Below, one piece after another: positions 34,811-59,304 of a stretch of DNA of 64,000 bases. The notes beneath the pieces are model-generated. The model ran no database searches, was not told the DNA's origin, and saw only the letters and a list, made by a program, of their open reading frames with translations. Within the stretch, counting starts at the first letter, position 1; every line of letters starts with the position of its first letter. The translations under genes and the position numbers were made by a program. The DNA is from Candidatus Omnitrophota bacterium (GTDB lineage: Bacteria > Omnitrophota > Gorgyraeia > Duberdicusellales > 4484-171): NCBI GenBank assembly GCA_037146775.1, contig JBAWWL010000007.1, positions 65,536-129,535 of the forward strand, given 5' to 3'.

Positions 34811-35240
34811 CAAAATTGAAGCTGAAGCCCGATGTCCACCTAAAAGAGGCGGACATGCCTTATCTATCTCTGCTATAATGAATTACACCAATTTATCTCC
34901 AGAAATAGCGGACATTTTGGACAAATATCGCCGATAAGCCAACCTCTAAAGTCTACAATTTCCTTGTTATTTGCCAGAATCGTACCTATAATAATGATTA
35001 CACAGTAAGAGATTCTCTTATTCCTGTGCCATCTAAGCGGAGTTTTGCTTAATACCCTCCATCGTTTAATGGAGGGTATTTTTTTGTAAAAACTCCCCGG
35101 GTAGGGCGAAGAATCCCGAGGAGCTTCTTGTAAATTTAATTTGTAAATTTACAAGATATATATGGGCGAGTCGGGAGAGAGCCAGCGTTTGCAGCTTTTG
35201 ACTTTATAACCCTCTGTGATAGTATATTGCAGAGGGTTTT
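34811..35240. repeat. approx. 330-bp structured intergenic element, copy 1 (5' hairpin ATGTCCACCTaaaagAGGCGGACAT + core + extra terminator-like hairpins + short CTCTGTGATA..CAGAGGG palindrome)
   Basis: core approx. 85-90 % identical to 39235..39572, 49904..50217 and 57313..57568. Confidence 0.8.
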
Positions 35241-35273
35241 ATATTGATTGAATAATAAGAAAAAAAGGGGTGT

Positions 35274-36506
35274 ATGAATAAAAAAATAAGTGTTATTTTG
35301 CCGTTGATGTTTTTGTTTATTTCTTCATCAATCTTTGCCGAAACTACCATTCTTAAATCAGGCAAAACTATAGAAGGCAAGATACTTGATAAAACAGATA
35401 AATACATCAAGGTAGATACCGAAGGTGTACCTATAACCTACTATCTTGAAGATATTGCAAGTATTGATGGGAAAGCCATAAACACATTCAAACAGCATTC
35501 TCCCGACCAAACATTTGTTCCTTTAACTGCCAATAGTGCCGAAGAATATGTTAAAAACGGCGTTGCCCAATACAAACAAGGTAACATTCCTCGAGCCATA
35601 TCCGATTTTAGCAAAGCTATCGAAATTAACCCCAACCTTATAGGCGCTTATTGTGGGCGCGGTATCGCTTATGCCTCGCAAGGCAATTTTTCCACAGCCA
35701 TTTCAAATTATAATAAAGCTATTGAGATAGATCCTAAATATCCCAGAGCTTATAACTATCGCGGTTCTGCCTATGCTCTGCAAGGCGATTTTGCCAAAGC
35801 TATCTCTGATCTAAATAAAGCCATTGAGATAGACCCTAGCTATGCACAGGCATATTGTGAGCGTGGGCTTGCTTATAAAGGACAAAACAATTTTGCCCAA
35901 GCCATATCAGATTACACCAAAACTATTGAAATAGATCCTAAGTATGTAGAAGCTTATAATTATCGTGGGCTTATTTATTTCGCAGAAGGCAATTTCACTC
36001 AAGCTATTTCAGACTATACCAAGGCTATCGAGGTAGATCCTAACTATGCAGAGGCCTATTACGACCGTGGTCTTGCCTACAAAGAACAAAACAATTTTGT
36101 CCAAGCCATCTCTGATTTTAACAAAGCCATTGAAGTAAATCCTAAATATGTAAATGCTTATTGTGGGCGTGCTCTTGCCTATGGTTTGCAAGGCAATTAT
36201 ACTAAAGCCGTTTTTGATTTTGATAAAGCGATTGAAATAGATCCTAACTATGCAGGTGCCTATGAGTATCGTGGGCTTCTCTATGCCAGACAAGGCAATT
36301 TTGCCAAAGCTATCTCTGACCTAAATAAAGCCATTGAGATAGATCCTAAATATGTAAATACCTATAAAGATCGTAGTATCGTCTATTTTAAGCAGAAAGA
36401 TTTTGCTAAAGCCTGGGAAGATGTACACAAGGTTGAGAGTTTAGGGGATAAGGTTGACCCTGGGTTTATTGAAATGCTTAAAAAAGCCTCTGGTAGGGAA
36501 AAATAG
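35274..36506 (+). CDS. TPR-repeat protein with signal peptide
   Basis: at least 9 tandem TPRs (AISD..KAIEIDP.Y..AY..RG.AY). Confidence 0.8.
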   Translation: MNKKISVILPLMFLFISSSIFAETTILKSGKTIEGKILDKTDKYIKVDTEGVPITYYLEDIASIDGKAINTFKQHSPDQTFVPLTANSAEEYVKNGVAQYKQGNIPRAISDFSKAIEINPNLIGAYCGRGIAYASQGNFSTAISNYNKAIEIDPKYPRAYNYRGSAYALQGDFAKAISDLNKAIEIDPSYAQAYCERGLAYKGQNNFAQAISDYTKTIEIDPKYVEAYNYRGLIYFAEGNFTQAISDYTKAIEVDPNYAEAYYDRGLAYKEQNNFVQAISDFNKAIEVNPKYVNAYCGRALAYGLQGNYTKAVFDFDKAIEIDPNYAGAYEYRGLLYARQGNFAKAISDLNKAIEIDPKYVNTYKDRSIVYFKQKDFAKAWEDVHKVESLGDKVDPGFIEMLKKASGREK

Positions 36507-36612
36507 ACTTACTTTATCGACAAAACTAATAATTTCTTATCAATCTTTTCCGCTTCTTCTAGCATTAACCAGTTACAAAATTCGTCCAACCCGGGGAGCC
36601 ATAAAAAAATTA

Positions 36613-36645
36613 CCCCACCCATTTCGGGTGGGGTTTATTTTTTAT
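36613..36645 (+). terminator. rho-independent terminator
   Basis: 'ccccacccatttcgggtggggtttatttttt'. Confidence 0.7.
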
Positions 36646-36771
36646 GTTTCTTTAGATTGGTTCGAACCTCTGTGAGAGTCTAAACGAAACTTAGGGTTTT
36701 GAAGCGAAGCACACAAAATTCCTTAGTTGAGTTATCCTCTGTGAGGGCTATCTGGGTAGCTATTGCCTTCT

Positions 36772-36862
36772 TAACCCTCTGTGATAATATAGTGCCAGTT
36801 TCACCGCAAAGTGATTGACTAGGCTAACAGGTCACCCTGTTGAGTAGACAGCCAGAGGGATT
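36772..36862 (+). promoter_or_regulatory. long version of the palindromic promoter-associated motif (AACCCTCTGTGATAATATAgtGCC...CAGAGGG) upstream of 36900
   Basis: same motif as at 39484..39572 and 50127..50217; contains the extended -10-like 'TGTGATAAT'. Confidence 0.5.
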
Positions 36863-36899
36863 TTTATTTAGGGTAAAATAATAAAAACGGAGGTGCGTT

Positions 36900-37313
36900 A
36901 TGAAGATAGAAAAAATAATTATTACGGCACTGGCGGTTTCGCTGTTCGGTGCGATTTTTTCAGGCGTTACCTGTGGATGGTTGTTTAATTGGGTATATAA
37001 ACTTGAGCCGACAAATGTTTGGAAGCCGATGGATGGCCCGCCTGACTTAATATTTTACATAGGAAGTTTCTTGCTCAACATAGTTCTCGCAGTTGTTTAT
37101 GCGTTACTCCGCAATGGTATTCCTGGGAAAAATAAATTAACCAAAGGCCTCATTTTCGGATTATGTGTTTGGGCTGTTGGTATGTTACCCGGGATGTTTT
37201 CAACCTATTCTTTTATGACAGTGGCTATTGGCACTGTCATTTATTGGACTATTTTAGGTTTGGTTGAAATACCGATTAAAGGTCTAATAATCGCTGCCAT
37301 ATACGGCGAATAA
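36900..37313 (+). CDS. small integral membrane protein
   Basis: four predicted hydrophobic helices; RBS 'aacggaggtg'. Confidence 0.5.
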   Translation: MKIEKIIITALAVSLFGAIFSGVTCGWLFNWVYKLEPTNVWKPMDGPPDLIFYIGSFLLNIVLAVVYALLRNGIPGKNKLTKGLIFGLCVWAVGMLPGMFSTYSFMTVAIGTVIYWTILGLVEIPIKGLIIAAIYGE

Positions 37314-37443
37314 TGGATTATTATGCAGTTTTTCCATTTCCCCAAACATCAACCAGTTGCGAAATTTGTCCCTGCCTACCGACAGGCAGACAATCAGGGG
37401 AGCCATGTCTTTTTACTATCCGAAATTTTCGGATATATAAAAA

Positions 37444-37476
37444 AACCCTCAAACCGGAAAGATTGAGGGTTTTTTA
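37444..37476 (+). terminator. rho-independent terminator
   Basis: 'aaccctcaaaccggaaagattgagggtttttt'. Confidence 0.7.
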
Positions 37477-37611
37477 ATTTTTGACCTAGAAAATAATCGC
37501 AATAAATACCTCCGTAAATATAGCTTGAAAAGGTACCAGTTTCGATATATATAATATGGTAGAATAATCGTAAGATTATAAATTTTCTATTCTTTAGAAA
37601 GGAGAATTGAT

Positions 37612-39153
37612 ATGTTACGTAAAATCATAATTATAAGTTTAGCTGTTTTAGCCGTGACGAATTGTATAGCTTCCCTTAAAACATATGCCGCTGTCCCAAA
37701 AGACATACTTAAAGTTCAAGATCCTAAAATAAAACCGATCAAGGATGGGCAAGACAAAAAGCCTCCATTGCCGGATCTGGTTGCCGCATATGTCGATCTC
37801 AGACCTTGGGGTGGAGGCGGCGAGCGTCCGATCTCTACCGGTGCCAACTGTGGCATCACCGGCTCTATCCGCAATAACGGCGCCGAAATGGCGCGTAATG
37901 TTAATTACGAGCTATTGCTGGATGGGCGAGTTATCCACAGTGGCCGGGTAGACATTATGGGCGGCGCGAGCGTACAGGTGAATAGTGAATTTAATCTTGC
38001 GTTCAATGAGCCCGGCAATCCGGAAGTCACGCTGGTAGTGGATGGACGAGGCGATATTGCCGAGAGCAATGAATCGAACAATAGAGTGAGCCGGCGAGCT
38101 ACGGTGCAGAATTTAGATGATCTTGTGGAGGTGACCGGGGTTGAATTTATGGTTAATGGACGGGCAGTTGAAGAAACTATTGTTGGTCAGAGCGGCACGC
38201 TTAGGGTTCGGGTGCGTAACAACAGCCGCCAGGCGCTGAGTAATGTGAGTGTTTCAGGAAGACTGCAAGATACGCAGGATCAGTTCCAAAGGCTTGATCT
38301 GGCGCCTAACCAGGAACAGCAAATAGAGTTTTCTAATTTAAGTTTCCGGAGTCCGGGCGATAAACTCATAACCGGCAGAGCTTCGCTGTCGAACAACCGC
38401 GAGGACGCTAATCCCCGCAATGATTGGATGCAGCGGGGGATGACCGTACGGATGAACGAGAATAGGGAGCCGGATCTGGTTGCCGCATATGTCGATCTCA
38501 GACCTTGGGGTGGAGGCGGCGAGCGTCCGATCTCTACCGGTGCCAACTGTGGCATCACCGGCTCTATCCGCAATAACGGCGCCGAAATGGCGCGTAATGT
38601 TAATTACGAGCTATTGCTGGATGGGCGAGTTATCCACAGTGGCCGGGTAGACATTATGGGCGGCGCGAGCGTACAGGTGAATAGTGAATTTAATCTTGCG
38701 TTCAATGAGCCCGGCAATCCGGAAGTCACGCTGGTAGTGGATGGACGAGGCGATATTGCCGAGAGCAATGAATCGAACAATAGAGTGAGCCGGCGAGCTA
38801 CGGTGCAGAATTTAGATGATCTTGTGGAGGTGACCGGGGTTGAATTTATGGTTAATGGACGGGCAGTTGAAGAAACTATTGTTGGTCAGAGCGGCACGCT
38901 TAGGGTTCGGGTGCGTAACAACAGCCGCCAGGCGCTGAGTAATGTGAGTGTTTCAGGAAGACTGCAAGATACGCAGGATCAGTTCCAAAGGCTTGATCTG
39001 GCGCCTAACCAGGAACAGCAAATAGAGTTTTCTAATTTAAGTTTCCGGAGTCCGGGCGATAAACTCATAACCGGCAGAGCTTCGCTGTCGAACAACCGCG
39101 AGGACGCTAATCCCCGCAATGATTGGATGCAGCGGGGGATGACCGTACGCTAA
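37612..39153 (+). CDS. secreted CARDB-domain protein containing a perfect 699-bp (233-aa) tandem duplication
   Basis: signal peptide; 'PDLVAAYVDLRP...VVDGRGDIAESNESNN' is the CARDB end-motif; 37771..38469 is identical to 38470..39153; GC approx. 55 % against approx. 36 % in the flanks. Confidence 0.65.
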   Translation: MLRKIIIISLAVLAVTNCIASLKTYAAVPKDILKVQDPKIKPIKDGQDKKPPLPDLVAAYVDLRPWGGGGERPISTGANCGITGSIRNNGAEMARNVNYELLLDGRVIHSGRVDIMGGASVQVNSEFNLAFNEPGNPEVTLVVDGRGDIAESNESNNRVSRRATVQNLDDLVEVTGVEFMVNGRAVEETIVGQSGTLRVRVRNNSRQALSNVSVSGRLQDTQDQFQRLDLAPNQEQQIEFSNLSFRSPGDKLITGRASLSNNREDANPRNDWMQRGMTVRMNENREPDLVAAYVDLRPWGGGGERPISTGANCGITGSIRNNGAEMARNVNYELLLDGRVIHSGRVDIMGGASVQVNSEFNLAFNEPGNPEVTLVVDGRGDIAESNESNNRVSRRATVQNLDDLVEVTGVEFMVNGRAVEETIVGQSGTLRVRVRNNSRQALSNVSVSGRLQDTQDQFQRLDLAPNQEQQIEFSNLSFRSPGDKLITGRASLSNNREDANPRNDWMQRGMTVR

Positions 39154-39234
39154 AGGCAAATGGAATATAGGAGAAAATATAGAGTAAGGGGCACATAGAA
39201 CGGTATAGCTGGGTTAGACCTTGCCCTGGCCGTT

Positions 39235-39572
39235 ACAAAAATTGAAACTTGAAGCCAAATGTCCACCTAAAAGAGGCGGACATGCCTTATCTATCTCTGC
39301 TGTAACGAATTACGCCGATTTATCTCTAGGAATGACGGACATTTTGGACAAACATTGACCATAAGTCAACCTCTAAAGCCTACAATTTCTTTGTTATTTG
39401 CCCAAATTATACCTATAATAATAGCTGTAGCAGTAAGAGATTTTCTTATTCCTGTGCCACCCAAGCGGAGTTTGTCTTTTTAACCCTCTGTGATAATATA
39501 TTGCCAGCCTTGCTGCAAAGTGATTGGCTATGCCAACAGGCCACCCTGTTGGTAGGCGGGCAGAGGGTTTTG
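39235..39572. repeat. approx. 330-bp structured intergenic element, copy 2
   Basis: see 34811..35240; ends with the long palindromic promoter-like module. Confidence 0.8.
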
Positions 39573-39617
39573 TTATTTTAGAACGGAAGAGGTAGAATTA
39601 AAAAAAAGGAGTTACGA

Positions 39618-39971
39618 GTGTGGGATAGAATTGATCGGAGAGAGTACCAAAGATTAATAGGCGAATATTTTGTTTACTATAAAATTAAAGATTCATCAGG
39701 AAGCTATAATCTCACTCGTACCAAAAATATCAGCAAAGGAGGTATGTTGCTTTCAGTGAATGAGCCTTTTGAAAAAGGAAAGAGTATGGCACTCATCATA
39801 AAAGGCCCTTTTGTCTTGGGAGCTGCCATAGAGACGACGGGGGTAGTTATTGAATCCAGAAAAATTGACAGAGGTTCTATTTATGAAACAAGAATTAAAT
39901 TTTCTAATATCAACGCAAAATTTCTCGACAAATTAGATGAATTTATCAAACGAAATTCCAAAGGTCGTTAG
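39618..39971 (+). CDS. PilZ-domain protein (putative c-di-GMP binding)
   Basis: 'RREYQR' (RxxxR) and 'TKNISKGGMLL' (D/NxSxxG) motifs. Confidence 0.55.
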   Translation: MWDRIDRREYQRLIGEYFVYYKIKDSSGSYNLTRTKNISKGGMLLSVNEPFEKGKSMALIIKGPFVLGAAIETTGVVIESRKIDRGSIYETRIKFSNINAKFLDKLDEFIKRNSKGR

Positions 39972-39973
39972 AG

Positions 39974-40067
39974 AAAAAAGAGATAGCGGGGTCAGACCTT
40001 CAGATGTCAGATAGATTGACAAAAAAGAGATAGCGGGGTCAGACCTTCAGATGTCAGATAGATTGAC
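39974..40067. repeat. 47-nt tandem direct repeat x2 (aaaaaagagatagcggggtcagaccttcagatgtcagatagattgac)
   Basis: two perfect units; the 'ggggtcagaccttcagatgtcagatagattg' core recurs at 42737, 44372 and, inverted, at 57105. Confidence 0.85.
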
Positions 40068-40070
40068 AAA

Positions 40071-40165
40071 GACCAAAAAATAAAATAGGGTCAGAGTCGT
40101 TTTGCTAAAGAGAGTGGAATAAATATCAGCTTCTAATTTTTGAAAATATAATTTCAATTTTCGCT
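40071..40165. repeat. approx. 95-nt dispersed repeat (gaccaaaaaataaaatagggtcagag...aatataatttcaa)
   Basis: approx. 90 % identical to 57015..57105. Confidence 0.75.
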
Positions 40166-40197
40166 TCGCGGCAACCCAAGGAAAAAACTTAAATATA

Positions 40198-42735
40198 ATG
40201 GTTGGCAAGACCTGGCCCCATTATTTCATATTGACAGGTTTTTTCCCTCAAGAAAAGGAGACAAAAGCTATGAAACAAACTGTCGCAGCATTTTTAGGAG
40301 TCATCCTTGTTTGTTTTTATCTCTTGCCATTGAACGGGCAAGAGATCGCAGATTCAAACTCTAACAAATATGAAAAGTTTCCGGAACGCGTGCGTAAGAT
40401 CGCTGAGGGAATGGAAAAACTAGGACTTAGTCCGAAAATTGATTTATCTCCGAAAATCGGAGAAGGAAGCGAAGGATATATTATTAATGCGAAAATTGGA
40501 GAAGAAAAGCCCGGAGAAAAATTTACTAATATCACTGTTTATGTCGCGACTGAAGATAGTATTCAACAATTTCTTGTTTTTCCGTTGGTGGGTTTCGTTG
40601 TTGAACCGCGTGAGGAGTTGACGCCTGCGCCGCTCTGGACAGGGAAGATAGCTGATCGTTTTAAAGGTGATGGACTGGGCACAACTTATGGTGCGTATAT
40701 CACTCCCGGAGTAGGCGGCCACATAATCGGAGTGGCCAATGCGTACGCCATGAAAAACGATGTAATAGTGAGTGTCAGAATGGAGCGGTGCGATACCAAA
40801 CCACGTTCATATTACTCAGGTATCTCAGAATTTGACGGAGAGAAGAGAGCCATTGAACTTTCGGCCGGGTTAAAAGATGACAGCAGAAACTGGATAGATG
40901 CTTTAGTTAAGATCATTGATGGTTTAGGCGGGGTGAAAATTTCTGTTTTTGATGCCAATCCGCAGTACAATGACAAGTTTGATTTTACTGACAAAGCGGT
41001 GCTTAAGGATTTCCCCAGTAAGGAAGCATATTTGCAGAAGGCTGCTTACGTTGTATCTGTTGCAAACACGAAAAGGTCCGGCGCTGCCGCGGATGGTGTC
41101 AGCCTGCTCCTCTTACTTGCATCTGTCGACTACGAAGGTATAGCCACTTTCACGCTGGAGGGGGATGATTCGCCGGGCACCATCCATCCAATCGGTACTG
41201 ATTTTGACATGAAATTGCGCGAGAAGAAAATTAGAACTCCTACGCTCGTGTTAGAGAGAGGACCGGATTCAAAGCAGTATTGGGCCGCTGTTCTCTATCG
41301 TCCGCCGGACAATTTTGGCCGCGGGGACGGTACAAGAGAAGTTCGTGTGACGCTCTTATTGGAGAATACAGGGGGCAAAAAAATAGAGGACAATAAAGAT
41401 TCTAGTTCAAAACGAGGGGAGTGCATGATACGGCTCATACGTCCGCCGGTTGTCCTTGTCCATGGCACGTTTGATGCGCCGATACCGTGTTGGGACACCC
41501 CGGATCAACATAGCAGCTTTACAATGAAAAAACGGCTGGAACAGGAAGGATTCAGACCGTTTATGGTGGACTGGGTGGAAACGAACGGATATAAAGATCC
41601 AAGCGCGTTTATCTCAAACTGCGAGACTGTGTGGAAAAATAATGGAGGGATCCACGAGGCACTGGAGACTTTTCGTAAGGACAACTTTGCGGCCACACAG
41701 GCGGATCTTGTCTGTCACAGCCAGGGCGGTGTGATCGCACGCAGGTACGTGAAGGGGACGGTATCGGAGACGAAGCTTGCCGACGACGATTACCATTATA
41801 CTAATCCGCGCGAGTGCTCACGCGGCGCGTGCTACTATCATCGTCTTAATAACTTCGCGAAAGGCGACATCCACCGTCTTATTACGATCAGTGCTACGCA
41901 TATGGGAAGCGACATTTGCTCTCTGTTAAATGTCTTTATCCAGCTTCGCAGTGAGGGGATGAAGTTAGCATCATGGGACTCGCTTTGCGCAAAACTTGCC
42001 CTTTTAGGCGGCGGTTATCAGGGAAACTGCACGAGTGATTGGATGGTTGTCAATTTTGCCTATTATACGAAAGAGTTTATCAGGCGGATGGGAAATGGTG
42101 AGCTTACAGGCGCGTATAAGGATCAGATCCCTGGTAGTCCGGCACTTCAGGCCATCGGAAAAACACTAGTTCCTTCGCATGCCATCGCGTGTACCGCTGA
42201 GGATAAAGATTTGATGGATTTTGATGGATCATACGAGGACCGAATGGAAACGATCTGGGAAGGTTCCAGTCGCGGCCTCTTGCTGGAGGCGTTTCGCAAG
42301 CTTGGGCAGAATGAAGATGCTGATGACCTTGCGCGAAGAGTGGACGAACAGGAGAGGGCGGAAGGCCTTGCGGCGGAAATTGTCAAGCTTAAGGTTATGC
42401 GGACGCATAGGATGGCGAATGCCAGAAGATTTCGTGCGGCAGTTTTTGGCAACAACCCGAATGACTGCACTGTCAGGAGGGAAAGCTCGCTGGGAGGGTT
42501 ACCAGAGCAATATACGACAACGATCCCCAACATCCTTCATGGTTACGCGCCGTGGTATAGCGCTGTGCAAGAACGCGTTGTACAGCTCCTTAAAGATGAC
42601 GGCGGCAAGTTTTGTTCAGCCGGGTTTCCGCAGGCCGGTGTGATGCCGCGCAATATCCAGTATATAGGACCATCTGTCATTGGCCCGGAGCTTGAAAAAG
42701 GTGTTGATCAAGGTTCTTTGCCTGTGGGACAGTAA
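40198..42735 (+). CDS. large secreted protein with a C-terminal alpha/beta-hydrolase (lipase/esterase-like) domain
   Basis: signal peptide after the internal Met (MKQTVAAFLGVILVCFYLLPLNG, RBS 'aaggag'); 'PPVVLVHGTFD' and nucleophile elbow 'LVCHSQGGVIARRY' (GxSxG); GC approx. 50 %. Confidence 0.6.
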   Translation: MVGKTWPHYFILTGFFPQEKETKAMKQTVAAFLGVILVCFYLLPLNGQEIADSNSNKYEKFPERVRKIAEGMEKLGLSPKIDLSPKIGEGSEGYIINAKIGEEKPGEKFTNITVYVATEDSIQQFLVFPLVGFVVEPREELTPAPLWTGKIADRFKGDGLGTTYGAYITPGVGGHIIGVANAYAMKNDVIVSVRMERCDTKPRSYYSGISEFDGEKRAIELSAGLKDDSRNWIDALVKIIDGLGGVKISVFDANPQYNDKFDFTDKAVLKDFPSKEAYLQKAAYVVSVANTKRSGAAADGVSLLLLLASVDYEGIATFTLEGDDSPGTIHPIGTDFDMKLREKKIRTPTLVLERGPDSKQYWAAVLYRPPDNFGRGDGTREVRVTLLLENTGGKKIEDNKDSSSKRGECMIRLIRPPVVLVHGTFDAPIPCWDTPDQHSSFTMKKRLEQEGFRPFMVDWVETNGYKDPSAFISNCETVWKNNGGIHEALETFRKDNFAATQADLVCHSQGGVIARRYVKGTVSETKLADDDYHYTNPRECSRGACYYHRLNNFAKGDIHRLITISATHMGSDICSLLNVFIQLRSEGMKLASWDSLCAKLALLGGGYQGNCTSDWMVVNFAYYTKEFIRRMGNGELTGAYKDQIPGSPALQAIGKTLVPSHAIACTAEDKDLMDFDGSYEDRMETIWEGSSRGLLLEAFRKLGQNEDADDLARRVDEQERAEGLAAEIVKLKVMRTHRMANARRFRAAVFGNNPNDCTVRRESSLGGLPEQYTTTIPNILHGYAPWYSAVQERVVQLLKDDGGKFCSAGFPQAGVMPRNIQYIGPSVIGPELEKGVDQGSLPVGQ

Positions 42736-42736
42736 C

Positions 42737-42886
42737 GGGGTTAGGCCTTCAGATGTCAGATAGATTGCAAAAACGTAATTATTTATAAACCAAATCCCAC
42801 CCCGGAGGTGGGCTTTGGTTTTAAGACAATATATTAAATAAAATTAAAAACTAATCCCAATGGCGATGATCCTCTTGATGAATTTT
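42737..42886. repeat. composite approx. 150-bp repeat, copy I (ggggtTaggccttcagatgtcagatagattgcaaaaacgtaatt... + hairpin aaccaaatcccaccccggaggtgggctttggtt + frameshifted 5' fragment of the Zn-ribbon mini-gene)
   Basis: approx. 90 % identical to 44372..44521. Confidence 0.8.
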
Positions 42887-42922
42887 GAAAATTCCGAGGA
42901 CACAATGTACGATTAAGAAGAT

Positions 42923-44264: not shown

Positions 44265-44370
44265 GATGAAAAAAATATTAGTCTTAACCTTCCTGTTGTT
44301 AATTCCTATTATTATCCATGCTGAAACCATAAAATTCAAATCAGGTAAAACAGTTGAGGGGAAAAGATAG
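44265..44370 (+). pseudogene. truncated N-terminus of a TPR-lipoprotein paralogue (MKKILVLTFLLLIPIIIHAETIKFKSGKTVEGKR*)
   Basis: homologous to the N-terminus of 35274..36506 (AETTILKSGKTIEGK); reading frame ends exactly at the start of repeat copy II. Confidence 0.45.
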
Positions 44371-44371
44371 T

Positions 44372-44521
44372 GGGGTCAGACCTTCAGATGTCAGATAGAT
44401 TACAAAAACGTAATTATTTATAAACCAAAGCCCACCTCCGGGGTGGGATTTGGTTTAAAGCCATAGAGTAAACAAAATTAAAAATTAACCCATGCCCGAC
44501 GATCCGTTTGATGAATTTTAA
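44372..44521. repeat. composite approx. 150-bp repeat, copy II (includes the 9-codon 5' fragment MPDDPFDEF* of the Zn-ribbon mini-gene)
   Basis: see 42737..42886. Confidence 0.8.
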
Positions 44522-48901: not shown

Positions 48902-48910
48902 AATAATAGA

Positions 48911-49447
48911 ATGAAAAAAATACCCAGACTTTTAAAATCACTTTTTTTCATGTTTGTATGTTTAGGTATATCAGGTTGTGTCACTGTCCCAACTGGATTC
49001 TTGAAACCCAATAAAGATTATCTAGAAAAGAGACAATTACAGATAAGACAATATGATACAACCGATCAGGAAAAGATTATAACTTCCGTTGCCGGGGTTT
49101 TACAAGATTTGGGTTTTACTTTGGATGCAAGTGAAACGCAAGTCGGTTTTATCGCAGCTTCAAAAAAAGCTGATGCAACAAACTTGGGCCAAGTTTTCTT
49201 TGTAGCATTGCTGGGTGGTGCTAACGCTGTTGGAAGCTGCGATAAGTCCCAAATTATTAAAGCTTCAGTTATTACTAAGCCTGGCTTAGATGGCAAGAAA
49301 ACAGTTGTCCGGGTTACATTCCAACGAGTTGTATGGAATATGCGAGGTGAAATTAGTAGGGTGGAAACTCTTAAAGAACCAGTACTGTATCAAAATTTTT
49401 ACGATAGCTTATCTAAGGCAATATTTTTGGAGGCCCAGCAAATATGA
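48911..49447 (+). CDS. lipoprotein, paralogue 1
   Basis: lipobox 'GISGCV'; paralogous to the next gene (shared '...RQYDTTD...YQNFYDSLSKAIFLEAQQ'). Confidence 0.55.
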   Translation: MKKIPRLLKSLFFMFVCLGISGCVTVPTGFLKPNKDYLEKRQLQIRQYDTTDQEKIITSVAGVLQDLGFTLDASETQVGFIAASKKADATNLGQVFFVALLGGANAVGSCDKSQIIKASVITKPGLDGKKTVVRVTFQRVVWNMRGEISRVETLKEPVLYQNFYDSLSKAIFLEAQQI

Positions 49448-49878
49448 AGAAATTAAGAAATTATTTTGGCACCATTTTTGTTTTATTAATGATTGTTATA
49501 TTGTCTGGATGCGCAACTACTGCCGCAAATGCGCTTATGAGTAAAGAAAGCCAGGTAAAACTAAGAAGTATTCAGACAAGAGCCTTTGATACAACTGATA
49601 AGAAGAAAATGATGCAAACGGTAATAAGTACAATGCAAGACTTAGATTTTGTTATTGATAAAGCCGATTTTATGCTCGGGTCTGTTACTGGTTCAAAGTT
49701 TCTCGGATATGAGGTTGTTGCTATGACTGTAACTGTAAGACCTAAAGGCGAAAAACAATTGTTAGTAAGAGCAAACGCGCAATATGGGATTAAATCCGTA
49801 GAAGATCCTGTAACCTACCAAGATTTCTTTACTGCTTTAGAAAAAGCCATATTTTTAACAGCCCAACAAGTTGACTAG
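49444..49878 (+). CDS. lipoprotein, paralogue 2
   Basis: lipobox 'ILSGCA'; its 3' 160 nt are duplicated at 57127..57290. Confidence 0.55.
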   Translation: MKKLRNYFGTIFVLLMIVILSGCATTAANALMSKESQVKLRSIQTRAFDTTDKKKMMQTVISTMQDLDFVIDKADFMLGSVTGSKFLGYEVVAMTVTVRPKGEKQLLVRANAQYGIKSVEDPVTYQDFFTALEKAIFLTAQQVD

Positions 49879-49903
49879 TAATAAATTTCCCTTAAGAATG
49901 GCA

Positions 49904-50217
49904 AATATCCACCCAAAAGAGGCGGACATGCCTTATCTATCTCTGCTATAACTAATTACGCCAATTTATCTCTTAAAATTACGGACATTCTGGACAAATA
50001 TCGCCGATAAGTAAATCTTTTAAGGCCGCAATTTCCTTGTTATTTACTCAAATTATGTCTATATTAATAGCTGTAGCAGCAAGAGATTTTTTTGGTACTG
50101 TGTCATTCAAGCGGAGTTTGCCTTTTTAGTCCTCTGTGATAATATATTGCCAGCCTCGTCGCAAGGTGTCGGCTAGGCCAACAGGCCACCCTGCTGGGTA
50201 GAGGTGGCAGAGGGTTT
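49904..50217. repeat. approx. 330-bp structured intergenic element, copy 3
   Basis: see 34811..35240. Confidence 0.8.
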
Positions 50218-50253
50218 TATTTTTTTGGATATAAAGCAAAAAGGAGGTTAGGT

Positions 50254-50511
50254 ATGCAAGAGCAAGAGATCGGAGCCGTTGACCATTTCTTTAGTAAGAT
50301 TTCTGTCGGCATAATCAAGCTAAGCGGCGTGCTTAAGCTGGGAGATACTATTCATATCAAGGGTAAACAGGCGGATTTTTCTCAAAAGGTCGAGTCGATG
50401 CGGATAGAGTTCAATAACGTGACCGAGGCAAAAGAGGGCGATAAGGTAGGTATAAAAGTCATACAGCCTCTTCACGCCAACGATAAAGTATACAAGGTGC
50501 TTGACGCATAG
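50254..50511 (+). CDS. hypothetical small protein; an in-frame TAG is followed by 84 further sense codons
   Basis: RBS 'aaaggaggt'; beta-barrel-like 'GVLKLGDTIHIKGK'; the frame remains open from 50512 to 50757 in a GC-rich stretch. Confidence 0.4.
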   Translation: MQEQEIGAVDHFFSKISVGIIKLSGVLKLGDTIHIKGKQADFSQKVESMRIEFNNVTEAKEGDKVGIKVIQPLHANDKVYKVLDA

Positions 50512-50742
50512 AAACTACCAGGGGCCAGTCCCGCTGCGGCAACTGCGGCTTCTGCCAGTAGTGAGCAAGACGCAACAATCCAAGGCCTGGCAAGCGGTCT
50601 GACCGACTCCCATGGTTCGCTGGACGCCGATTTGCTTAAAAAAGCCGTGGATGCAATTTGTGCCCAGCAGGGTTTTAAAAACCATACCCTGGTAACGCAA
50701 ATTAGAACCTCTTCAGATGAAATCGTAGCAGAACTGTGGCCA

Positions 50743-50931
50743 TCAGAACCGAGGCAATAGAGAACCGCTATATAATTTCTCGGTATCTTCAAGCATCAAC
50801 CAGTTGTAAAATTCGTAATGAGACTTGGATTTTTTTACAAAAAAATCTTTAGTCGAATTATCCTCGAAGAGGATCCAGCCTATACGAGCAAGGGGGTAGT
50901 CAATTTTTTGCACTTGACCAATATTTACCAT
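50743..50931 (-). CDS. hypothetical small protein (62 aa) carrying the conserved 'EFYNWLM..EKL' segment
   Basis: same segment (KFRNWLMFGEMEKL) is encoded on the minus strand at 37290..37407 and as a relic at 36563..36602; conservation is at the protein rather than the nucleotide level. Confidence 0.35.
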   Translation of the reverse strand: MVNIGQVQKIDYPLARIGWILFEDNSTKDFFVKKSKSHYEFYNWLMLEDTEKLYSGSLLPRF

Positions 50932-51083
50932 GGCAGTATCATTTTATTTCACTAGCTATAAAGACGTGGTTGATAGATGGGGATAGGGTGGTGAAGCGTG
51001 AGGTAGATAAAATAATGTCTATTGCCAAGGCTTGACCCGTTATCGCCTCCACGTTTTTCAAGCTAAGCGAATAATCAGAAAAT

Positions 51084-52499: not shown

Positions 52500-52500
52500 T

Positions 52501-54519
52501 ATGAAAAAGTTTTTTGTATGCGTGGCGGTTTTTTTATTCGCGGTTGTTCTCGCAAAGAGCCTGCCAGCCCAGAGCAATGATTCCGTCTTATCCAAAGAGG
52601 CAAAGGAGCATTTTGACGCGGGCTTAAACGCAGCTCAGAATAAGCAATGGCCTCAGGCAATTACCCATTTTGGCCAGGCGCAGAAGCTTGCGCCGTTATC
52701 TTCGGAGGTATTATTTAATCTGGCACTTGCCTATGATAAATCCGGAAATTGCGAATTAGTAGCAATTCCCTGGTATAAGGCATATCTTGTTTTAGCCAAA
52801 GATGCTTCGCGTACGGAGGCGGTACGTACAAGAATAAAAGAACTAGAGGCTAAAGTAGCTACGGATATTCGCGGGATACTTGCCTGGAGTATTCAGGTAG
52901 TTGACGGGTATGTAGGGGAATATAAAGATAATCCTCAGTTTGCCTCTTATTCAGAAATATCCAAGGTCCAGGCCCAGGTCGGCGATATAGAAGGTGCTTG
53001 TAAGACCGCCTCTATGCTGCCGCCGTCATATAAGAAGACAATGAAACCGCGTTTTGATAATTTACTAGCCATAGCGCTTGATAATGATGATTTAGAAAAA
53101 GCGCAGGCAATATATGCGCGTATGACCGGCGATGATTCTATAAAATTCAGCGCAAACTTTCAGATGTATGATTTTTATCTTAAAAAGCAGGATACCCAAC
53201 GTTCCAATGAATTCTTAGTCAAAGCGGAAAATTTGGCCCCGCGTGTTACGCCTGCCACCAATAAATACAGCGTCTATACCAACTTGGCAAAGATTAAGAC
53301 CCAATCGGGTGATGTGGCTGCTTGCAGCCGTTATCTTTCGCTAGCCAGAGAGATTATCCCAAAGTTAGAATTTCCTTATTTTCCAGAAAGCACCCAAGAA
53401 AGCCGGGCACTTTATTACGCTATGTTTTTAGATGAGCAAATTGCAGATAAAGATATTGCGGGTATCGCCCAAACTACAGAAGAGGCAATCGCCAAGACAC
53501 AAAGTATAACCGGTGATAGTTCTAAAGATAGACAAAGAGTGAATATGTTTTGTAAGATTGTGCGGTCTCTGGCAAATTCAGGGAATATGGAGGAGGCAAA
53601 AAGAGTATTTGCTTTGGCCGATAAGCAGAAGTTTTGGGTTACCGATGAGCTAAGGCAGCGTAAAAAAAAGTTGTCCGAAACTCAAGGTCTTGAAAATTTT
53701 GACGAAGAAAAAAAGCTGATTGAAGAAATAGGTGCAAAAAATAGTATTGTCGGCCCTTTTGCCGCGGCCGAAGCAAGCATGGGCGATATAAAGGCTGCCC
53801 GCTCAACCATTGCCAACATGCCGACATTCGATGTAACTAAAGATGAATTATTCCAGCCCCAAGCCTGCCTAGGAGTCGTTGAAGCTTTAACACAAAAAGG
53901 CGATATCGCAAATAGTTGGGAATTTGCCGCTTTGACAAACAGCGAATATTACAAGATGACCGCCTATAAATTAATTGCCTTGGCAGCGATTAAAGCGGGA
54001 GATTTTAATACTGCCCAAAAGGCAATAAACTTAATGAATCCCGTTGAAGAAAAAGATCAGGCAAAAAAATATTTTCTCCTTGAGCACATTAATAGGGAAC
54101 GGGATATAGCCTTAAAAGAACTTGTCTTAGCGCAAAATGCTAAAAGTGATTTTACCGCCAGTCGTCAAACGTGCCATGGCATCAATAGCTTCGGGGATAG
54201 GTTTGCTACCTACAAAAAAATTGCCGTTTTGCAGTTAAAAGATGCGCGCCCCCTAACTGTTGCAGGTTCTCTTAAAAATGACGAGTTAGAGGCAAAATTT
54301 TGGTCAGAAATCGCACTTCGTAACAGCCAGATACCGTTTTTTATTGATATGCCGGGTTTTTTAAAAACGCTCAAAGAACGTGTCCCGAATGAAATTATGC
54401 AATATCAAAACCCTACCGATGTCGTCACCGGCCTTACCAGCGCAGTCAGTGCTACGGATTACGCCTTAAGGGAAAAACGGATAATGGAGCAATATTGGGA
54501 TAGCCGTAAAAAAGATTAA
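52501..54519 (+). CDS. large secreted TPR-like repeat protein
   Basis: signal peptide; repeated alpha-helical TPR-like segments. Confidence 0.6.
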   Translation: MKKFFVCVAVFLFAVVLAKSLPAQSNDSVLSKEAKEHFDAGLNAAQNKQWPQAITHFGQAQKLAPLSSEVLFNLALAYDKSGNCELVAIPWYKAYLVLAKDASRTEAVRTRIKELEAKVATDIRGILAWSIQVVDGYVGEYKDNPQFASYSEISKVQAQVGDIEGACKTASMLPPSYKKTMKPRFDNLLAIALDNDDLEKAQAIYARMTGDDSIKFSANFQMYDFYLKKQDTQRSNEFLVKAENLAPRVTPATNKYSVYTNLAKIKTQSGDVAACSRYLSLAREIIPKLEFPYFPESTQESRALYYAMFLDEQIADKDIAGIAQTTEEAIAKTQSITGDSSKDRQRVNMFCKIVRSLANSGNMEEAKRVFALADKQKFWVTDELRQRKKKLSETQGLENFDEEKKLIEEIGAKNSIVGPFAAAEASMGDIKAARSTIANMPTFDVTKDELFQPQACLGVVEALTQKGDIANSWEFAALTNSEYYKMTAYKLIALAAIKAGDFNTAQKAINLMNPVEEKDQAKKYFLLEHINRERDIALKELVLAQNAKSDFTASRQTCHGINSFGDRFATYKKIAVLQLKDARPLTVAGSLKNDELEAKFWSEIALRNSQIPFFIDMPGFLKTLKERVPNEIMQYQNPTDVVTGLTSAVSATDYALREKRIMEQYWDSRKKD

Positions 54520-54570
54520 GAGAAAAGAATTATGAAAAATTCCGAGAATGAGGATACCGGAGCCAGACTC

Positions 54571-54620
54571 CAAAATTAAAAATTAGCCTAATGTTCGATA
54601 ATCCACTTGACGAATTTTAA
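54571..54620. repeat. 5' fragment of the Zn-ribbon mini-gene with conserved upstream context (caaaattaaaaattagcc-ATGTTCGATAATCCACTTGACGAATTTTAA)
   Basis: encodes only MFDNPLDEF*. Confidence 0.7.
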
Positions 54621-54959
54621 TAAGATGAAGGGGCCGGCGCAAAAATTATATAAAACATTCTAAAGCGTAGAGAACATTGTTTCTCTGCCAACGATTTAGC
54701 TTCTTATACCGCTGATCGTTTTGTCAAACTTCAAGTATCCACAAAAAAATAGATATTTAAACATCTAGGAGTATAATATCGACAGAACAGTTATTGAAGG
54801 ATCGTTGTTTTAACTCACCATATACCCGGATATAATATTTGTACCGTGCGGGTTTCGTGTGGCGGTAAAACAAAAGCAAGAGGCGGGGTAGGCTATTAAG
54901 TATCGGAGAATTAGTTACGAGTTGCAAGCTTGTAAGGGGCAAAAAAAGGAGGAATTGAA

Positions 54960-55133
54960 ATGAATAGCTGTATGAGATGCGGAGAGAAATTATCACACAA
55001 TTATTTGGTAACAGTATTTACGATTGTAAATGAAAAAAGAAAAAGAGTCTTGGTATGTTTAAAATGTAAAGAAATTTTAGATAAAAAAGAAAAACCAAGT
55101 ATTCCCGCCCCAAAAAGTTGTGTCGGTTCTTAA
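54960..55133 (+). CDS. 57-aa zinc-ribbon small protein (MNSCMRCGEK...CLKCKEIL)
   Basis: strong RBS 'aaaggaggaattgaa-ATG'; CxxC...CxxC. Confidence 0.4.
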   Translation: MNSCMRCGEKLSHNYLVTVFTIVNEKRKRVLVCLKCKEILDKKEKPSIPAPKSCVGS

Positions 55134-55235
55134 GAGAGTTTTTCCTTCCGTTTTAATGATGAGGGTTCCCTCTGGATATAACATTTACGCCGTGTGACCT
55201 TTTATCCCGGGAATTAAAAAAAGAAATAAAAAATA

Positions 55236-55478
55236 ATGGCTGATATAAAGTCGAACGATCCGCTCCATGGTGTTACCTTAAAGATGATACTTACTGATTT
55301 GGAGCAGTGGTACGGCTGGAAGGAGTTGGGAGAAAATATCAATGTTAGATGCTTTACGAATGAACCAAGCCTTACCTCGAGCCTAAAGTTTTTAAGAAAA
55401 ACGCCTTGGGCGAGGAAAAAGGTAGAAGATTTTTACGTTAGAGCTTTAATGCACCACCATCCAAGAAGTAATATCTGA
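55236..55478 (+). CDS. VF530/DUF2132-family small DNA-binding protein
   Basis: '[25 protein letters not shown]...CF...[24 protein letters not shown]' matches the DUF2132 consensus. Confidence 0.65.
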
Positions 55479-55572
55479 ACAAAATAAGATCAAATATCCA
55501 CACGAAGGATCTAGGAGCCATCGATAGTAATCCGCAAGAAGCATGTTCCTCGGTTAATAGGAGTAGTATATA

Positions 55573-57027
55573 ATGTCACGGAAATCAAAAAGGCCAGTTT
55601 TTATTGATGAAGACGATTCGCCCAATATCTCTGCTCAAGGCTGCGCGATCGATATAACCAAGGATAAACTTTTCAATGAAGCCCATAGCTTACCGGAAAA
55701 TCTAGAGCTCAATGTTGAGTTTTTGTGTGCGTTTAATTTGCTAGAGAATACGCGTGATTCTGTTTTTGTGAGCGGTAAAGCCGGTACCGGCAAGTCCACC
55801 CTGCTTAAATATTTCCGTAAAAATACCTCAAAGAATGTGGTTGTGCTAGCTCCGACGGGAGTCGCGGCGATTAACGTTGGTGGGCAAACCATACATTCTT
55901 TTTTCAATTTTCCACCCAGACTTATTCAAAAAGATACCATTCGTAGACGGCGCAACAGCAAGCTTATTAAAAAACTTGATATGGTGATTATCGATGAGGT
56001 TTCTATGGTTCGCGCTGACCTTATGGATGGCATTGACTACGCATTAAGGATAAATAGGGATAAATTGGATGTACCCTTTGGTGGCGTTCAGGTAGTTTTT
56101 TTTGGAGATTTGTTTCAATTACCGCCCGTGGTGGAGAAGGACGCACGTATGATATTGTCTGTTGCCTATGAGAGTCCATATTTTTTTAATGCGAAGGTGT
56201 TTGAGCAGATAAAACTACGCTATGTCGAATTAACTAAAATATATCGTCAGTCAGACATAAAATTTATTAATATATTAAATCAACTACGTTGCAAAGAACA
56301 TACGGAAGGGGAACTTCAGGCATTAAACGAAAGAGTAAGAACGCGCACACCGCAGAACCTCGCTCATTGCGTTATCTTGACTACCACAAACAAACGTGCC
56401 AACGAGATTAATGAGCAACGATTAGAGGGCTTGAGCACAGAAGAGCTTGGTTATGAAGCTATCACGACCGGCACATTCGATACCTCAGCGTATCCTACGG
56501 AATTTTTTTTGAAGCTTAAAAGGGGAGCGCAGGTAATATTGATTAAAAATGATCCTGACAAACGGTGGGTTAACGGGACTATCGCTGAGATATCCGGTAT
56601 TTCCAGCGTTTGTATCCAGGTGCTTATTGGTGATAATATTTGCGAAGTTCCAAGGGTAACATGGGAAAAGATTCAGTATGAATACAACGAAGTTACAGAA
56701 AAGGTAGAAGAGAATGTCATTGGGACATTTGAACAATATCCGCTAAAGTTAGCCTGGGCGATCACCATTCACAAAAGTCAGGGCCAGACGTTTGATAATG
56801 TTGTCATTGATTTGGGATACGGTGCTTTCACGCATGGGCAGGTCTATGTGGCCTTGAGCCGCTGCAGGACGCTCGAAGGGATTCTTCTGAAAAGACCAGT
56901 TGTTGAGAGCGATATTATTTTCGATGAGCGGATTTATAATTTTAGAAATAGAATGATAGAGTCCGATCAGGCAGTAATGGGATCAGGCCTTCGGGTGACC
57001 GATAAATTGGCAAAGACCAAAAAATAA
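55573..57027 (+). CDS. PIF1/RecD-like (AAA_30) ATP-dependent DNA helicase
   Basis: Walker A 'VSGKAGTGKSTLL'; 'VLAPTGVAAINVGGQTIHSFF'; Walker B 'VIIDEVSMV'; C-terminal 'AITIHKSQGQTFDNVVID...VALSRC'. Confidence 0.85.
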   Translation: MSRKSKRPVFIDEDDSPNISAQGCAIDITKDKLFNEAHSLPENLELNVEFLCAFNLLENTRDSVFVSGKAGTGKSTLLKYFRKNTSKNVVVLAPTGVAAINVGGQTIHSFFNFPPRLIQKDTIRRRRNSKLIKKLDMVIIDEVSMVRADLMDGIDYALRINRDKLDVPFGGVQVVFFGDLFQLPPVVEKDARMILSVAYESPYFFNAKVFEQIKLRYVELTKIYRQSDIKFINILNQLRCKEHTEGELQALNERVRTRTPQNLAHCVILTTTNKRANEINEQRLEGLSTEELGYEAITTGTFDTSAYPTEFFLKLKRGAQVILIKNDPDKRWVNGTIAEISGISSVCIQVLIGDNICEVPRVTWEKIQYEYNEVTEKVEENVIGTFEQYPLKLAWAITIHKSQGQTFDNVVIDLGYGAFTHGQVYVALSRCRTLEGILLKRPVVESDIIFDERIYNFRNRMIESDQAVMGSGLRVTDKLAKTKK

Positions 57028-57122
57028 AATAGGGTTAGAGTTATTTTGTTAAAGAGAGTGGAATAAATCTTAGTTTCTAATTTTTGGAAATATAATTTCA
57101 ACATTCAAGGCCTGACCCCGTC
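57015..57122. repeat. approx. 95-nt dispersed repeat plus inverted 'gacggggtcaggcc' element
   Basis: approx. 90 % identical to 40071..40165; overlaps the last 4 codons of the helicase. Confidence 0.75.
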
Positions 57123-57126
57123 TTTT

Positions 57127-57290
57127 TTACTATGACTGTAACTGTAAGACCTAAAGGCGAAAAACAATTGTTAGTAAGAGCAAACGCGCAATATGGGATT
57201 AAATCCGTAGAAGATCCTGTAACCTACCAAGATTTCTTTACTGCTTTAGAAAAAGCCATATTTTTAACAGCCCAACAAGTTGATTGATAA
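57127..57290 (+). pseudogene. duplicated 3' fragment of lipoprotein gene 49444..49878 (MTVTVRPKGEKQLLVRANAQYGIKSVEDPVTYQDFFTALEKAIFLTAQQVD*)
   Basis: approx. 99 % nt identity to 49725..49880, immediately upstream of repeat copy 4, as at copy 3. Confidence 0.7.
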
Positions 57291-57312
57291 TGATGTTACC
57301 TCCCAAGAATAG

Positions 57313-57568
57313 CAATATCCATCTAAAAGAGGCGGACATGCCTTATCTATCTCTGTTATAACGAATTACGCCAATTAATCTCCGAGAATAACGGATAAAT
57401 ATCGCCTATAAACCAATCTCTAAAGCCTGTGTTTTCCTGTATAGGGTTCGAACCGTAAAGGGAGCTTGAGGGAAATAAATTTCCTTCAAGTCATCCGGGT
57501 TTCTCTGCAAGAAGGGGGAGTCGTTGCTTTTTTGACTCTTTGTGATACTATATATTTCAGAGGGTTTT
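57313..57568. repeat. approx. 330-bp structured intergenic element, copy 4 (divergent 3' half, ends with the short palindromic promoter-like module)
   Basis: see 34811..35240. Confidence 0.75.
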
Positions 57569-59292: not shown

Positions 59293-59304
59293 ATAAAGAG
59301 GTCT

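Follow-up and report, generated by a model that had tools for sequence, protein, structure and literature searches.

Four copies of a non-coding element of 260-430 bp lie, all on the + strand, in a 64,000-nt stretch of a Candidatus Omnitrophota genome (contig JBAWWL010000007.1, positions 65,536 to 129,535), referred to below as the window. Each copy occupies the space between a stop codon and the next ribosome-binding site, the position noted for all four in a first-pass annotation of the stretch. Copy 1 (c1, 34811..35240) separates a 493-aa gene (stop at 34791) from a TPR gene (start 35274); copy 2 (c2, 39235..39572), a CARDB-domain gene (stop 39153) from a PilZ gene (start 39618); copy 3 (c3, 49904..50217), a lipoprotein gene (49444-49878) from an 85-aa gene (start 50254); and copy 4 (c4, 57313..57568), a 3' fragment of the lipoprotein gene from a 116-aa gene (start 57603). 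The TPR gene, the PilZ gene and the small genes of unknown function that lie downstream are mutually unrelated. The setting is that of a chromosome, with serA/serC and rex in the neighbourhood and a lipoprotein operon that is conserved across Omnitrophota. The lipoprotein is identical to a protein of a Candidatus Omnitrophota metagenome-assembled genome and has thousands of relatives at 75-90%, labelled Omnitrophota or Omnitrophica, while the best relative of SerC, at 72%, comes from Candidatus Aceula.

The four-copy family is recovered by repeat search: the 25-mer GGCGGACATGCCTTATCTATCTCTG occurs exactly at 34848, 39275, 49921 and 57331, each time on the + strand, and has no match in 100 shuffles. 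Profile search places the copies at 34826-35243, 39252-39576, 49899-50223 and 57311-57573, in agreement with the bounds given above, which are those of the first-pass annotation. With two further copies found on the metagenome contigs L003 and L004, six can be aligned, and the alignment resolves three modules, A, B and C, which occur in varying combinations: A, B, an extra terminator insert and a short form of C in copy 1; A, B and a long form of C in copies 2 and 3; A, an unrelated middle and short C in copy 4. Copies 1-3 share more, ~267 nt, than does copy 4, which keeps the first ~115 nt and the end module. Identity between copies is mosaic, at 92-98% in a 51-mer within module A, 72-89% over module A as a whole, 57-82% in B and 53-94% in C. 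All six copies face the downstream gene. The first-pass view that no reading frame is preserved agrees with what we found: the conserved block has stops in all three minus-strand frames, no frame is kept between copies, and the translation of the element (two open frames, concatenated) is absent from the predicted proteins in 5.8 billion clusters.

Module C is the best supported of the three. It consists of the palindrome AACCCTCTG...CAGAGGGTT and a T-run, giving on the + strand a hairpin and then a U-run. In the 5' arm and loop of this hairpin (hairpin C, or hairpin 2 of the element) lies a promoter-like sequence of sigma-70 type with an extended -10, P2 (TTGNCT-16-TGnTAnnAT), aimed at the next gene; the pattern TTGNCT-16-(TG)TAnnAT has 6 matches in the window against 0.01 expected, and is present also in L003 and in a contig of another organism, L100. 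The palindromic end has a short and a long version, as first described. The short form is found in copy 1 (35198..35238; P2 TTGACT-16-(TG)TAGTAT with its -35 at 35198 and -10 at 35220-35225, hairpin at 35208-35238, then a U-run) and in copy 4 (57524..57566; P2 57524-57551, arms GACTCTTTG and CAGAGGGTT); the long form in copy 2 (39472..39569; P2 39472-39499, arms 39482-39490 and 39561-39569 closing a Y-shaped fold, then a U-run) and in copy 3 (50118..50216; P2 50118-50145, arms AGTCCTCTG and CAGAGGGTT, with G-U pairs on the + strand). A conserved insert of ~57 nt sets the arms of the long form 70 nt apart, and the resulting Y-shaped fold (-32 kcal/mol) is closed by the same 9-10-bp stem. The module also stands alone on the + strand: in long form at 36763..36861, upstream of a 137-aa gene (start 36900); as a module-C-type hairpin with a compensated inner stem and a U-run at 57972..58004, between the 116-aa gene and a gene starting at 58040; and with diverged arms at 63163..63203, upstream of a gene starting at 63225. 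This makes seven copies in 29 kb of the window, in addition to those of L003 and L100; a degenerate trace is seen at 58985-59076. The palindrome GGTTCGAACC, found in the unrelated middle of copy 4 (57444-57453) and again in the spacer 5' of the stand-alone module at 36763 (36661-36670), may be a further shared module.

Pairing in hairpin C is biased towards G-U on the + strand. In its nine copies 86 pairs are Watson-Crick; of the other cells, 17 are G-U and 8 mismatched when read on the + strand, and 2 and 23, respectively, on the - strand. The six short forms have 91.7% of their cells paired, a figure that falls to 36-59% when the partners are slid; three pairs are changed on both sides, and the inner stem is re-written in the 57972 copy. 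A U-run follows in 7 of the 9 copies, and a terminator scan lists 35208-35238 and 57972-58004, so that module C has the G+C-rich stem and U-run of an intrinsic terminator. Together with this pairing, the U-run and the complementarity of the arms even when 70 nt apart lead us to take module C for an intrinsic terminator on the + strand rather than a dimer operator; the 70-nt separation argues against a single such operator. That it would act as a promoter too is suggested by the conserved hexamers within it and by its position immediately in front of genes (36900, 63225) for which no other candidate promoter is seen. Of the signals attributed to the element at the outset both kinds are thus present, though the terminator that the data support is the 3' palindrome, with the outward promoter inside it. 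L100 has module C upstream of the one homologue found for the 116-aa gene (67% identical), and there one of the module's arm pairs is changed on both sides; this conservation indicates what would be a maintained regulatory region.

Module B, missing from copy 4, contains a second promoter-like sequence on the + strand, P1, at 34964..34992, 39391-39419 and 50037-50065 (the last with TATATT). Copies 1 and 2 have TTGTTA-17-TATAAT, and close variants are kept in copy 3, L003 and L004, the set as a whole reading TTGTTA/TTGATA/CTGGTA, 16-17 nt, TATAAT/TATATT/TATAGT. The spacer drifts while the hexamers stay, which is the behaviour of a sigma-70 promoter. On the 3' side of P1 is a segment of 60-90 nt in which AAGAGAT is invariant. 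The predicted P1 transcript of copy 1 (34999..35087, + strand) has two small hairpins and a terminator of its own (35051-35080 and U7), three hairpins in all, at -31.5 kcal/mol and z = -5.98; the terminator was identified by the terminator scan and constitutes, with its U-run, the extra strong terminator that separates modules B and C in this copy (35051-35087). A small-RNA gene inside the element, one of the options of the first-pass annotation, is plausible in view of the conservation of the P1 hexamers over a free spacer and of a copy-1 transcript with z = -6.0 and its own terminator.

Module A comprises hairpin 1, a near-invariant 51-nt block and GGACA-N4-GGACA direct repeats. Hairpin 1, ATGTCCACCT-AAAAG-AGGCGGACAT, lies at 34832..34856, 39259-39283, 49905-49929 and 57315-57339, with the consensus ATGTCCRCCY, loop, RGGCGGACAT. 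The shared 5' stem-loop reported earlier is indeed found in every copy, but on the + strand it carries one to three A.C mismatches per copy: pairing counts are 68 Watson-Crick, 3 G-U and 9 mismatches on the + strand and 68, 9 and 3 on the - strand, where the six copies form a 10-bp stem, G-U pairs included, with 59/60 cells paired. The strand bias stems from ~4-5 independent substitutions, mostly shared by descent. In L004 compensation has made the stem perfect. As for the description of this hairpin as terminator-like, the U-run is missing from the element copies, and a canonical terminator is seen only at the orthologous site in L093, the closest lipoprotein locus (90% identical in amino acids). 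Here the same hairpin is perfect and is followed by TTTTATTT, and would therefore be the terminator of the lipoprotein operon; 3' of it is a diverged relative of module A in which CCGGACAAAACGGACAAA is kept. Hairpin 1 has probably descended from a terminator stem, the U-run having been replaced by the 51-mer in element copies.

The 51-nt block (34848..34898, 39275-39325, 49921-49971 and 57331-57381, + strand) is known from six copies in at least three genomes. Its 92-98% identity holds for all pairs; the first 25 nt are invariant and each substitution is private to one copy. The GGACA repeats follow at 34910..34923, 39337-39350 and 49983-49996 on the + strand, with one box only in copy 4, and are present also in L003, L004 and L093. 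By manual count the distance between them and the P1 -35 is ~10 nt, or one helical turn, greater in copies of the window than in those of L003 and L004, which lends weak support to module A as a possible control region of P1. The window lineage alone has a 10-11-nt insertion in module A, absent from L003 and L004. In copies 1 and 3 this creates GCCGATAA (34930-34937 and 50003-50010), which we take to be the -10 consensus of sigma-28 (FliA); at the same site copy 4 has GCCTATAA and copy 2 has GACCATAA.

The lipoprotein gene upstream of copy 3 has part of its 3' end repeated upstream of copy 4, as first reported, though over 154 nt and not 160: 49721..49874 is identical to 57130..57283, both on the + strand. 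The second tract holds an orphan set of the C-terminal 53 codons, its last sense codon changed synonymously from GAC to GAT and its stop from TAG to TGA. The perfect identity sits inside ~178 nt of homology and drops sharply beyond, at the stop region (GAC TAG versus GAT TGA); after it come the modules A of copies 3 and 4, which are 94% identical in the 51-mer and ~76% overall. Tract and module A together bracket 7.4 kb carrying orphan, TPR, VF530 and PIF1-helicase genes. The duplicate had been taken as a sign that the element mobilises together with coding sequence; given the sharp drop in identity and the synonymous change in the stop region, it is better read as a putative recombination junction flanking the 7.4-kb segment. 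Such a bracket is what a single-crossover insertion (Campbell-type or mini-circle) or a tandem-duplication junction would leave. No strain without the 7.4-kb segment was found among relatives of the lipoprotein locus or at the locus of the 116-aa homologue. A diversity-generating retroelement, in which the paired repeats differ at adenines, was rejected, since the two tracts show no difference over their 154 nt and no reverse transcriptase turned up among the neighbouring proteins.

Lipoprotein loci of relatives show what else this position can hold. In L089-L092 and L094 the orthologous gene is followed by ordinary terminator/promoter spacers, and in L096 and L097 by other sequence with no profile match; L085 and L086 have a related hairpin terminator and then an island, and L093 is the only orthologous locus with a diverged module A relative. 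In two close relatives (L085 7833-17780, L093 560-1930) the conserved BamE-like/lipoprotein operon leads directly into the island, which holds small genes on the minus strand along with a response regulator, a Phage_rep_O protein and two large serine recombinases. Three contigs, all of them short, stop ~150-190 nt past the lipoprotein gene. The lipoprotein locus, next to the site of copies 3 and 4, is an integration hotspot, the L085/L093 island junction lying outside the 51-mer.

Beyond the window the element is scarce. The exact 25-mer has no match in 185,579 representative genomes, and the element is absent from their SerC-anchored loci; among 241 million JGI records only two metagenome contigs, L003 and L004, carry the 25-mer. 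In L003 the element follows a truncated transposase gene (rve-type, on the opposite strand) and precedes a gene for a secreted 214-aa protein; ~110 nt downstream of the latter, at 1729-1809, is a tRNA gene (48 bits). In L004 it starts a few bases past the stop codon of an HNH endonuclease gene, and the contig ends inside it. Two contigs of the window organism from other assemblies start, respectively, exactly at the conserved block (L001) and inside the duplicated lipoprotein tract (L002). In all, four contigs have their break at or close to the element or within the duplicate that flanks it, which is the behaviour of a repeat. Searches of viral contigs with two patterns gave 0 matches, and the whole of copy 2 found none in phage and plasmid collections. 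The suggestion that a known non-coding RNA family might be found in Rfam was not borne out: Rfam 15 gave no match at the gathering threshold in the window, and nothing relevant over the element at E up to 5 or up to 1. Since L003 and L004 carry the element next to unrelated genes, it is not a local segmental duplication only, the outcome that would have undone the original claim, and appears to be a lineage-restricted family. A plain segmental duplication was rejected also within the window, where the flanking genes are not paralogous except for the 154-nt tract.

Apart from the four copies, the profile search found none elsewhere in the window and none in 9.3 kb of sequence upstream of it. 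Parts of this sequence look foreign: 8993-12562 and 16583-23799 of the window encode a ParB-methylase fusion, a terminase large subunit, a WYL regulator, an AAA ATPase and GmrSD, and the contig just upstream of the window (L101 1-9045) has very large genes of helicase and defence type. Neither the prophage-like or defence-like first half of the window nor L101 1-9045 holds a copy of the element or of module C.

From the repeats and their modular architecture, the + strand G-U bias of hairpin C, the conservation of promoter hexamers and the presence of copies at unrelated loci in other genomes, we infer a composite terminator/small-RNA/promoter cassette that has been spread and reshuffled by recombination, and judge the chances of this being right or wrong to be about equal. 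Hairpin C would stop transcription arriving from the upstream gene and from P1, and P2 would restart it ~40-110 nt before the next start codon; RNA begun at P2 would hold the 3' arm only and hence escape termination at hairpin C. RNA from P1 would be 60-90 nt long and end at hairpin C or, in copy 1, at the dedicated terminator. Module A would be a protein-bound upstream control region of P1, and its hairpin 1 may descend from, or double as, the stem of the upstream gene's terminator. The cassettes would have spread and re-assorted by recombination between conserved blocks, with no transposase, in the manner of the PeSL (promoter-early stem-loop) cassettes of T4-type phages, composite units of a sigma-70-like promoter and a stem-loop terminator that mediate shuffling and mini-circle integration (Arbiol et al. 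2010, PMC2839356; Comeau et al. 2014, PMC4122927). The varying combinations of modules and their unequal identities fit such recombination better than they fit transposition.

Several observations weigh against this reading. The family is rare, with six full copies known and the exact 25-mer in 0/185,579 representative genomes and 2/241 million JGI records, and its copies are clustered, all four in the 77 kb of genome read lying on the + strand within 23 kb. The covariation in hairpin C is modest, its score being reached by 37/500 shuffles and its count of double changes by 63/500; the + strand G-U excess could be due in part to C-to-T bias, the leading strand being strongly G-skewed. Predicted P1 transcripts of copy 2, copy 3 and L003 are not unusually stable (z -2.1, -0.2 and -1.8), and the module B stem-loop takes another form in L003. 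For module A, the RNA fold is ordinary on both strands (z -0.7 to -1.7), no protein is pointed to as the binder, and an ordinary upstream-region role falls short of accounting for the invariance of the 51-mer; nor does the model explain why hairpin 1 is better paired on the - strand.

Among the alternatives, a non-autonomous mobile element was the interpretation first offered, as a MITE (miniature inverted-repeat transposable element) or Correia-like repeat; it might equally be BOX-like, or a hairpin-ended derivative of the IS200/IS605 or IS91 type, the promoter and terminator signals being passengers or by-products. Copies at unrelated loci in at least three genomes, assemblies that break at the element, the truncated transposase gene directly adjoining the L003 copy and hairpins near both ends all speak for it, as does a true inverted-repeat-bounded small repeat family in the same region. 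IS200/IS605- and IS91-type elements leave neither inverted repeats nor target duplications, and insertion into single-stranded DNA would be expected to give a single orientation on a strongly skewed replichore, as seen. Against this, an inverted-repeat search over each copy and its flanks returned internal palindromes only, with no end-to-end pair, and no consistent target-site duplication, flanking direct repeat or target motif could be read in the flanks of the four window copies, L003 and L004. The two end hairpins are unrelated (ATGTCC...GGACAT in hairpin 1, CCCTCTG...CAGAGGG in hairpin 2), unlike the similar subterminal hairpins of IS200/IS605 ends, the left flanks vary, where IS200/IS605 types have a fixed tetranucleotide or pentanucleotide target, with one boundary type in copies 1 and 2 and another in copies 3 and 4, and no transposase, recombinase or integrase was found among those window proteins that were scanned against Pfam. 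Modules that are separate and variously combined, a P2 that faces a gene in every copy, a module C that another organism retains in front of its 67% homologue of the 116-aa gene and great rarity in public data also fit poorly with transposition, and we consider a mobile element unlikely. It is rather less probable that the element is primarily a DNA-level site, in which the 51-mer, with its imperfect dyad GGCGGACAT...AATTACGCC, and the GGACA boxes are bound by a site-specific recombinase or other polar DNA-binding protein, the cassettes marking points of gene-cassette or island exchange. The block is extremely conserved, non-coding and devoid of RNA structure, has the same polarity in all copies, and shows a sharp change of identity at its borders, where each copy joins differing sequences on either side; moreover, a 7.4-kb segment is bracketed by repeats, and in relatives an island encoding two large serine recombinases comes after the orthologous lipoprotein locus. 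But the window proteins scanned include no such enzyme, the island junction of L085 and L093 falls outside the 51-mer, and the perfect-identity tract of copies 3 and 4 is in a coding fragment while their 51-mers differ at 3 positions; the dyad symmetry, too, is weak (6 of 9). Searches for attachment sites in tRNA or tmRNA genes gave none in the window, and integron attC, XerCD dif, operators for Rex, CRP or Fur, and sigma-54 and RpoE-type promoters were rejected by eye against their consensus sequences.

Two readings take the element to act through RNA of other kinds. A cis-acting leader or attenuator, in which hairpin C is read through in the P1 leader on a signal (protein, ligand or translation of a tiny leader ORF), P2 is secondary or spurious and the whole element is a single long regulated 5' UTR, draws on the order promoter, 60-90-nt leader, terminator with U-run, ribosome-binding site and gene in copies 2, 3 and L003, and on the invariance of AAGAGAT in the leader. 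Just upstream, CGGAG could pair with CUCUG of the terminator 5' arm as an antiterminator, and a short ORF ends at the terminator foot in copies 1-3 (both read from the sequence). Yet in copy 1 P1 and module C are 110 nt apart and there is a separate, strong terminator; no P1 accompanies copy 4 or any of the three modules C that stand alone, although these too precede genes; the downstream genes are unrelated to each other; and Rfam is silent even at lax thresholds. The short ORF has no usable start in L003 and poor spacing from a ribosome-binding site, and the TAA at the terminator foot is a consensus feature of module C, with or without module B; a leader peptide (ATT/GTG ... TAA) was rejected as main explanation on these grounds of start and stop codon. 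Attenuation, too, we consider unlikely. Very improbable is a small RNA from the minus strand, begun at a leftward promoter TTGACT-17-CAAAAT (39369 to 39341) that would be divergently paired with P1, covering the complement of the 51-mer and ending at hairpin 1. The near-complete pairing of hairpin 1 on that strand, against its A.C mismatches on the other, and the promoter-like site in copy 2, with similar sequences legible in copies 1 and 3, would be in keeping with it. The promoter, though, falls on an insertion of the window lineage and has no counterpart in L003 and L004, hairpin 1 lacks a U-run after it on the - strand, the pairing bias comes from the few, mostly inherited substitutions noted above, and the - strand fold is ordinary (z -0.7 to -1.4).

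The window contains other repeats and signals. A second, unrelated small repeat family with the motif GCGGGGTCAGACCTTCAGATGTC has copies at 56979-57119, 39962-40162, 42711-42850 and 44346-44484. The first of these has 13-nt inverted repeats at its ends (GGGATCAGGCCTT and AAGGCCTGACCCC), as in a true MITE, and its place is exactly between the PIF1-helicase gene's 3' end and the orphan fragment of the lipoprotein gene; a tandem duplication of the motif, with a 47-nt unit, is found at 39962-40055. Genes flanking element copies have internal repetition of their own: the TPR gene (35563-36372) is built of 102-nt repeats, and the CARDB-domain gene has a perfect 300-nt duplication (37770-38069 = 38469-38768, period 699 nt). 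The only minus-strand coding candidates in the window, where all other genes are on the + strand, are small ORFs or fragments at 50743-50931, 36509-36622 and 37284-37406 with the common motif F-x-N-W-L-M-L/F-x-E-x-E-K, each just downstream of a gene that follows the element or module C; the 62-aa ORF has no Pfam match. Finally, the palindromes GTGAAAAATTTCAC and GTGAAAAAATTCAC (59137-59160 and 59274-59297), upstream of a rex-like gene (59305-59937; domains Put_DNA-bind_N and CoA_binding, per L002), look like putative Rex operators, which would mean autoregulation.

Omnitrophota is an uncultivated phylum, host-dependent in part, and we know of nothing reported on its promoters, terminators or small RNAs; these would be its first concrete regulatory signals, their function being inferred. 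If the cassette model holds, it would provide a ready-made native promoter and terminator consensus for the phylum, a candidate small-RNA family, and a bacterial counterpart of phage PeSL, with regulatory cassettes serving also as sites of recombination by which orphan genes are moved. A bolder extension, in our view improbable, is that the 51-mer and GGACA boxes form the platform of a dedicated DNA-binding or recombination protein, in a chromosomal PeSL-like gene-shuffling system of Omnitrophota whose P1 RNA would be a new multi-copy small-RNA family under common control; portable terminator/small-RNA/promoter units would then let orphan genes be swapped already insulated and expressed. If the model fails, what is left is a small lineage-specific repeat family that fragments metagenome assemblies.

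Several known kinds of intergenic repeat resemble the element in part. Correia elements and MITEs share its small size, intergenic location and repetition, and they too can be a source of promoters and of hairpins resembling terminators. What defines them is inverted repeats at the termini and duplication of the target site (TA in the Correia case), and neither was seen in the element. BOX elements of Streptococcus pneumoniae (boxA-boxB-boxC) and enterobacterial BIMEs are mosaic intergenic repeats, likewise non-coding, with variously combined modules and predicted hairpins, and able to affect expression of their neighbours. They number tens to hundreds of copies in both orientations, as against six full copies that all face a gene; the REP palindromes of BIMEs are linked to RAYT transposases, whereas the element has canonical promoter hexamers and no sequence relation to BOX or BIME. 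Paralogous small-RNA families with conserved upstream activator sites, such as Qrr, csRNA and RsmX/Y/Z, resemble it in build: several copies lie in intergenic spaces, with a conserved block upstream, a promoter to each copy, a short transcript (predicted, in the element) and a terminator. In those families it is the transcribed seed that is most conserved; in the element it is a part 65-115 nt upstream of the P1 -35, and the predicted transcript, AAGAGAT apart, is 57-82% identical and without a match in Rfam.

The closest likeness is to PeSL. Module C has the arrangement by which PeSL-type cassettes are defined (PMC4122927), a repeated intergenic terminator with a sigma-70 promoter before a Shine-Dalgarno sequence. 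Both are conserved terminator-plus-promoter units lying between genes, just before the Shine-Dalgarno of small genes, many of them orphans; both recur many times in a single orientation, and both are associated with insertions, replacements and duplicated junctions, which recombination between copies, through mini-circle excision and integration, explains in PeSL and may explain here. The differences are of setting and build: PeSL belongs to the hyperplastic regions of T4-type phages and the element to a bacterial chromosome; the PeSL stem-loop is upstream of the promoter, and here the promoter is inside the hairpin; and the element is far longer (260-430 nt), with two extra modules, the 51-mer with its GGACA boxes and the second promoter with its short transcript. 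There is no sequence similarity between them, and recombination activity in the element is putative. By analogy, then, the element would work like PeSL, as a chromosomal system of similar design and not as a member of the phage family.

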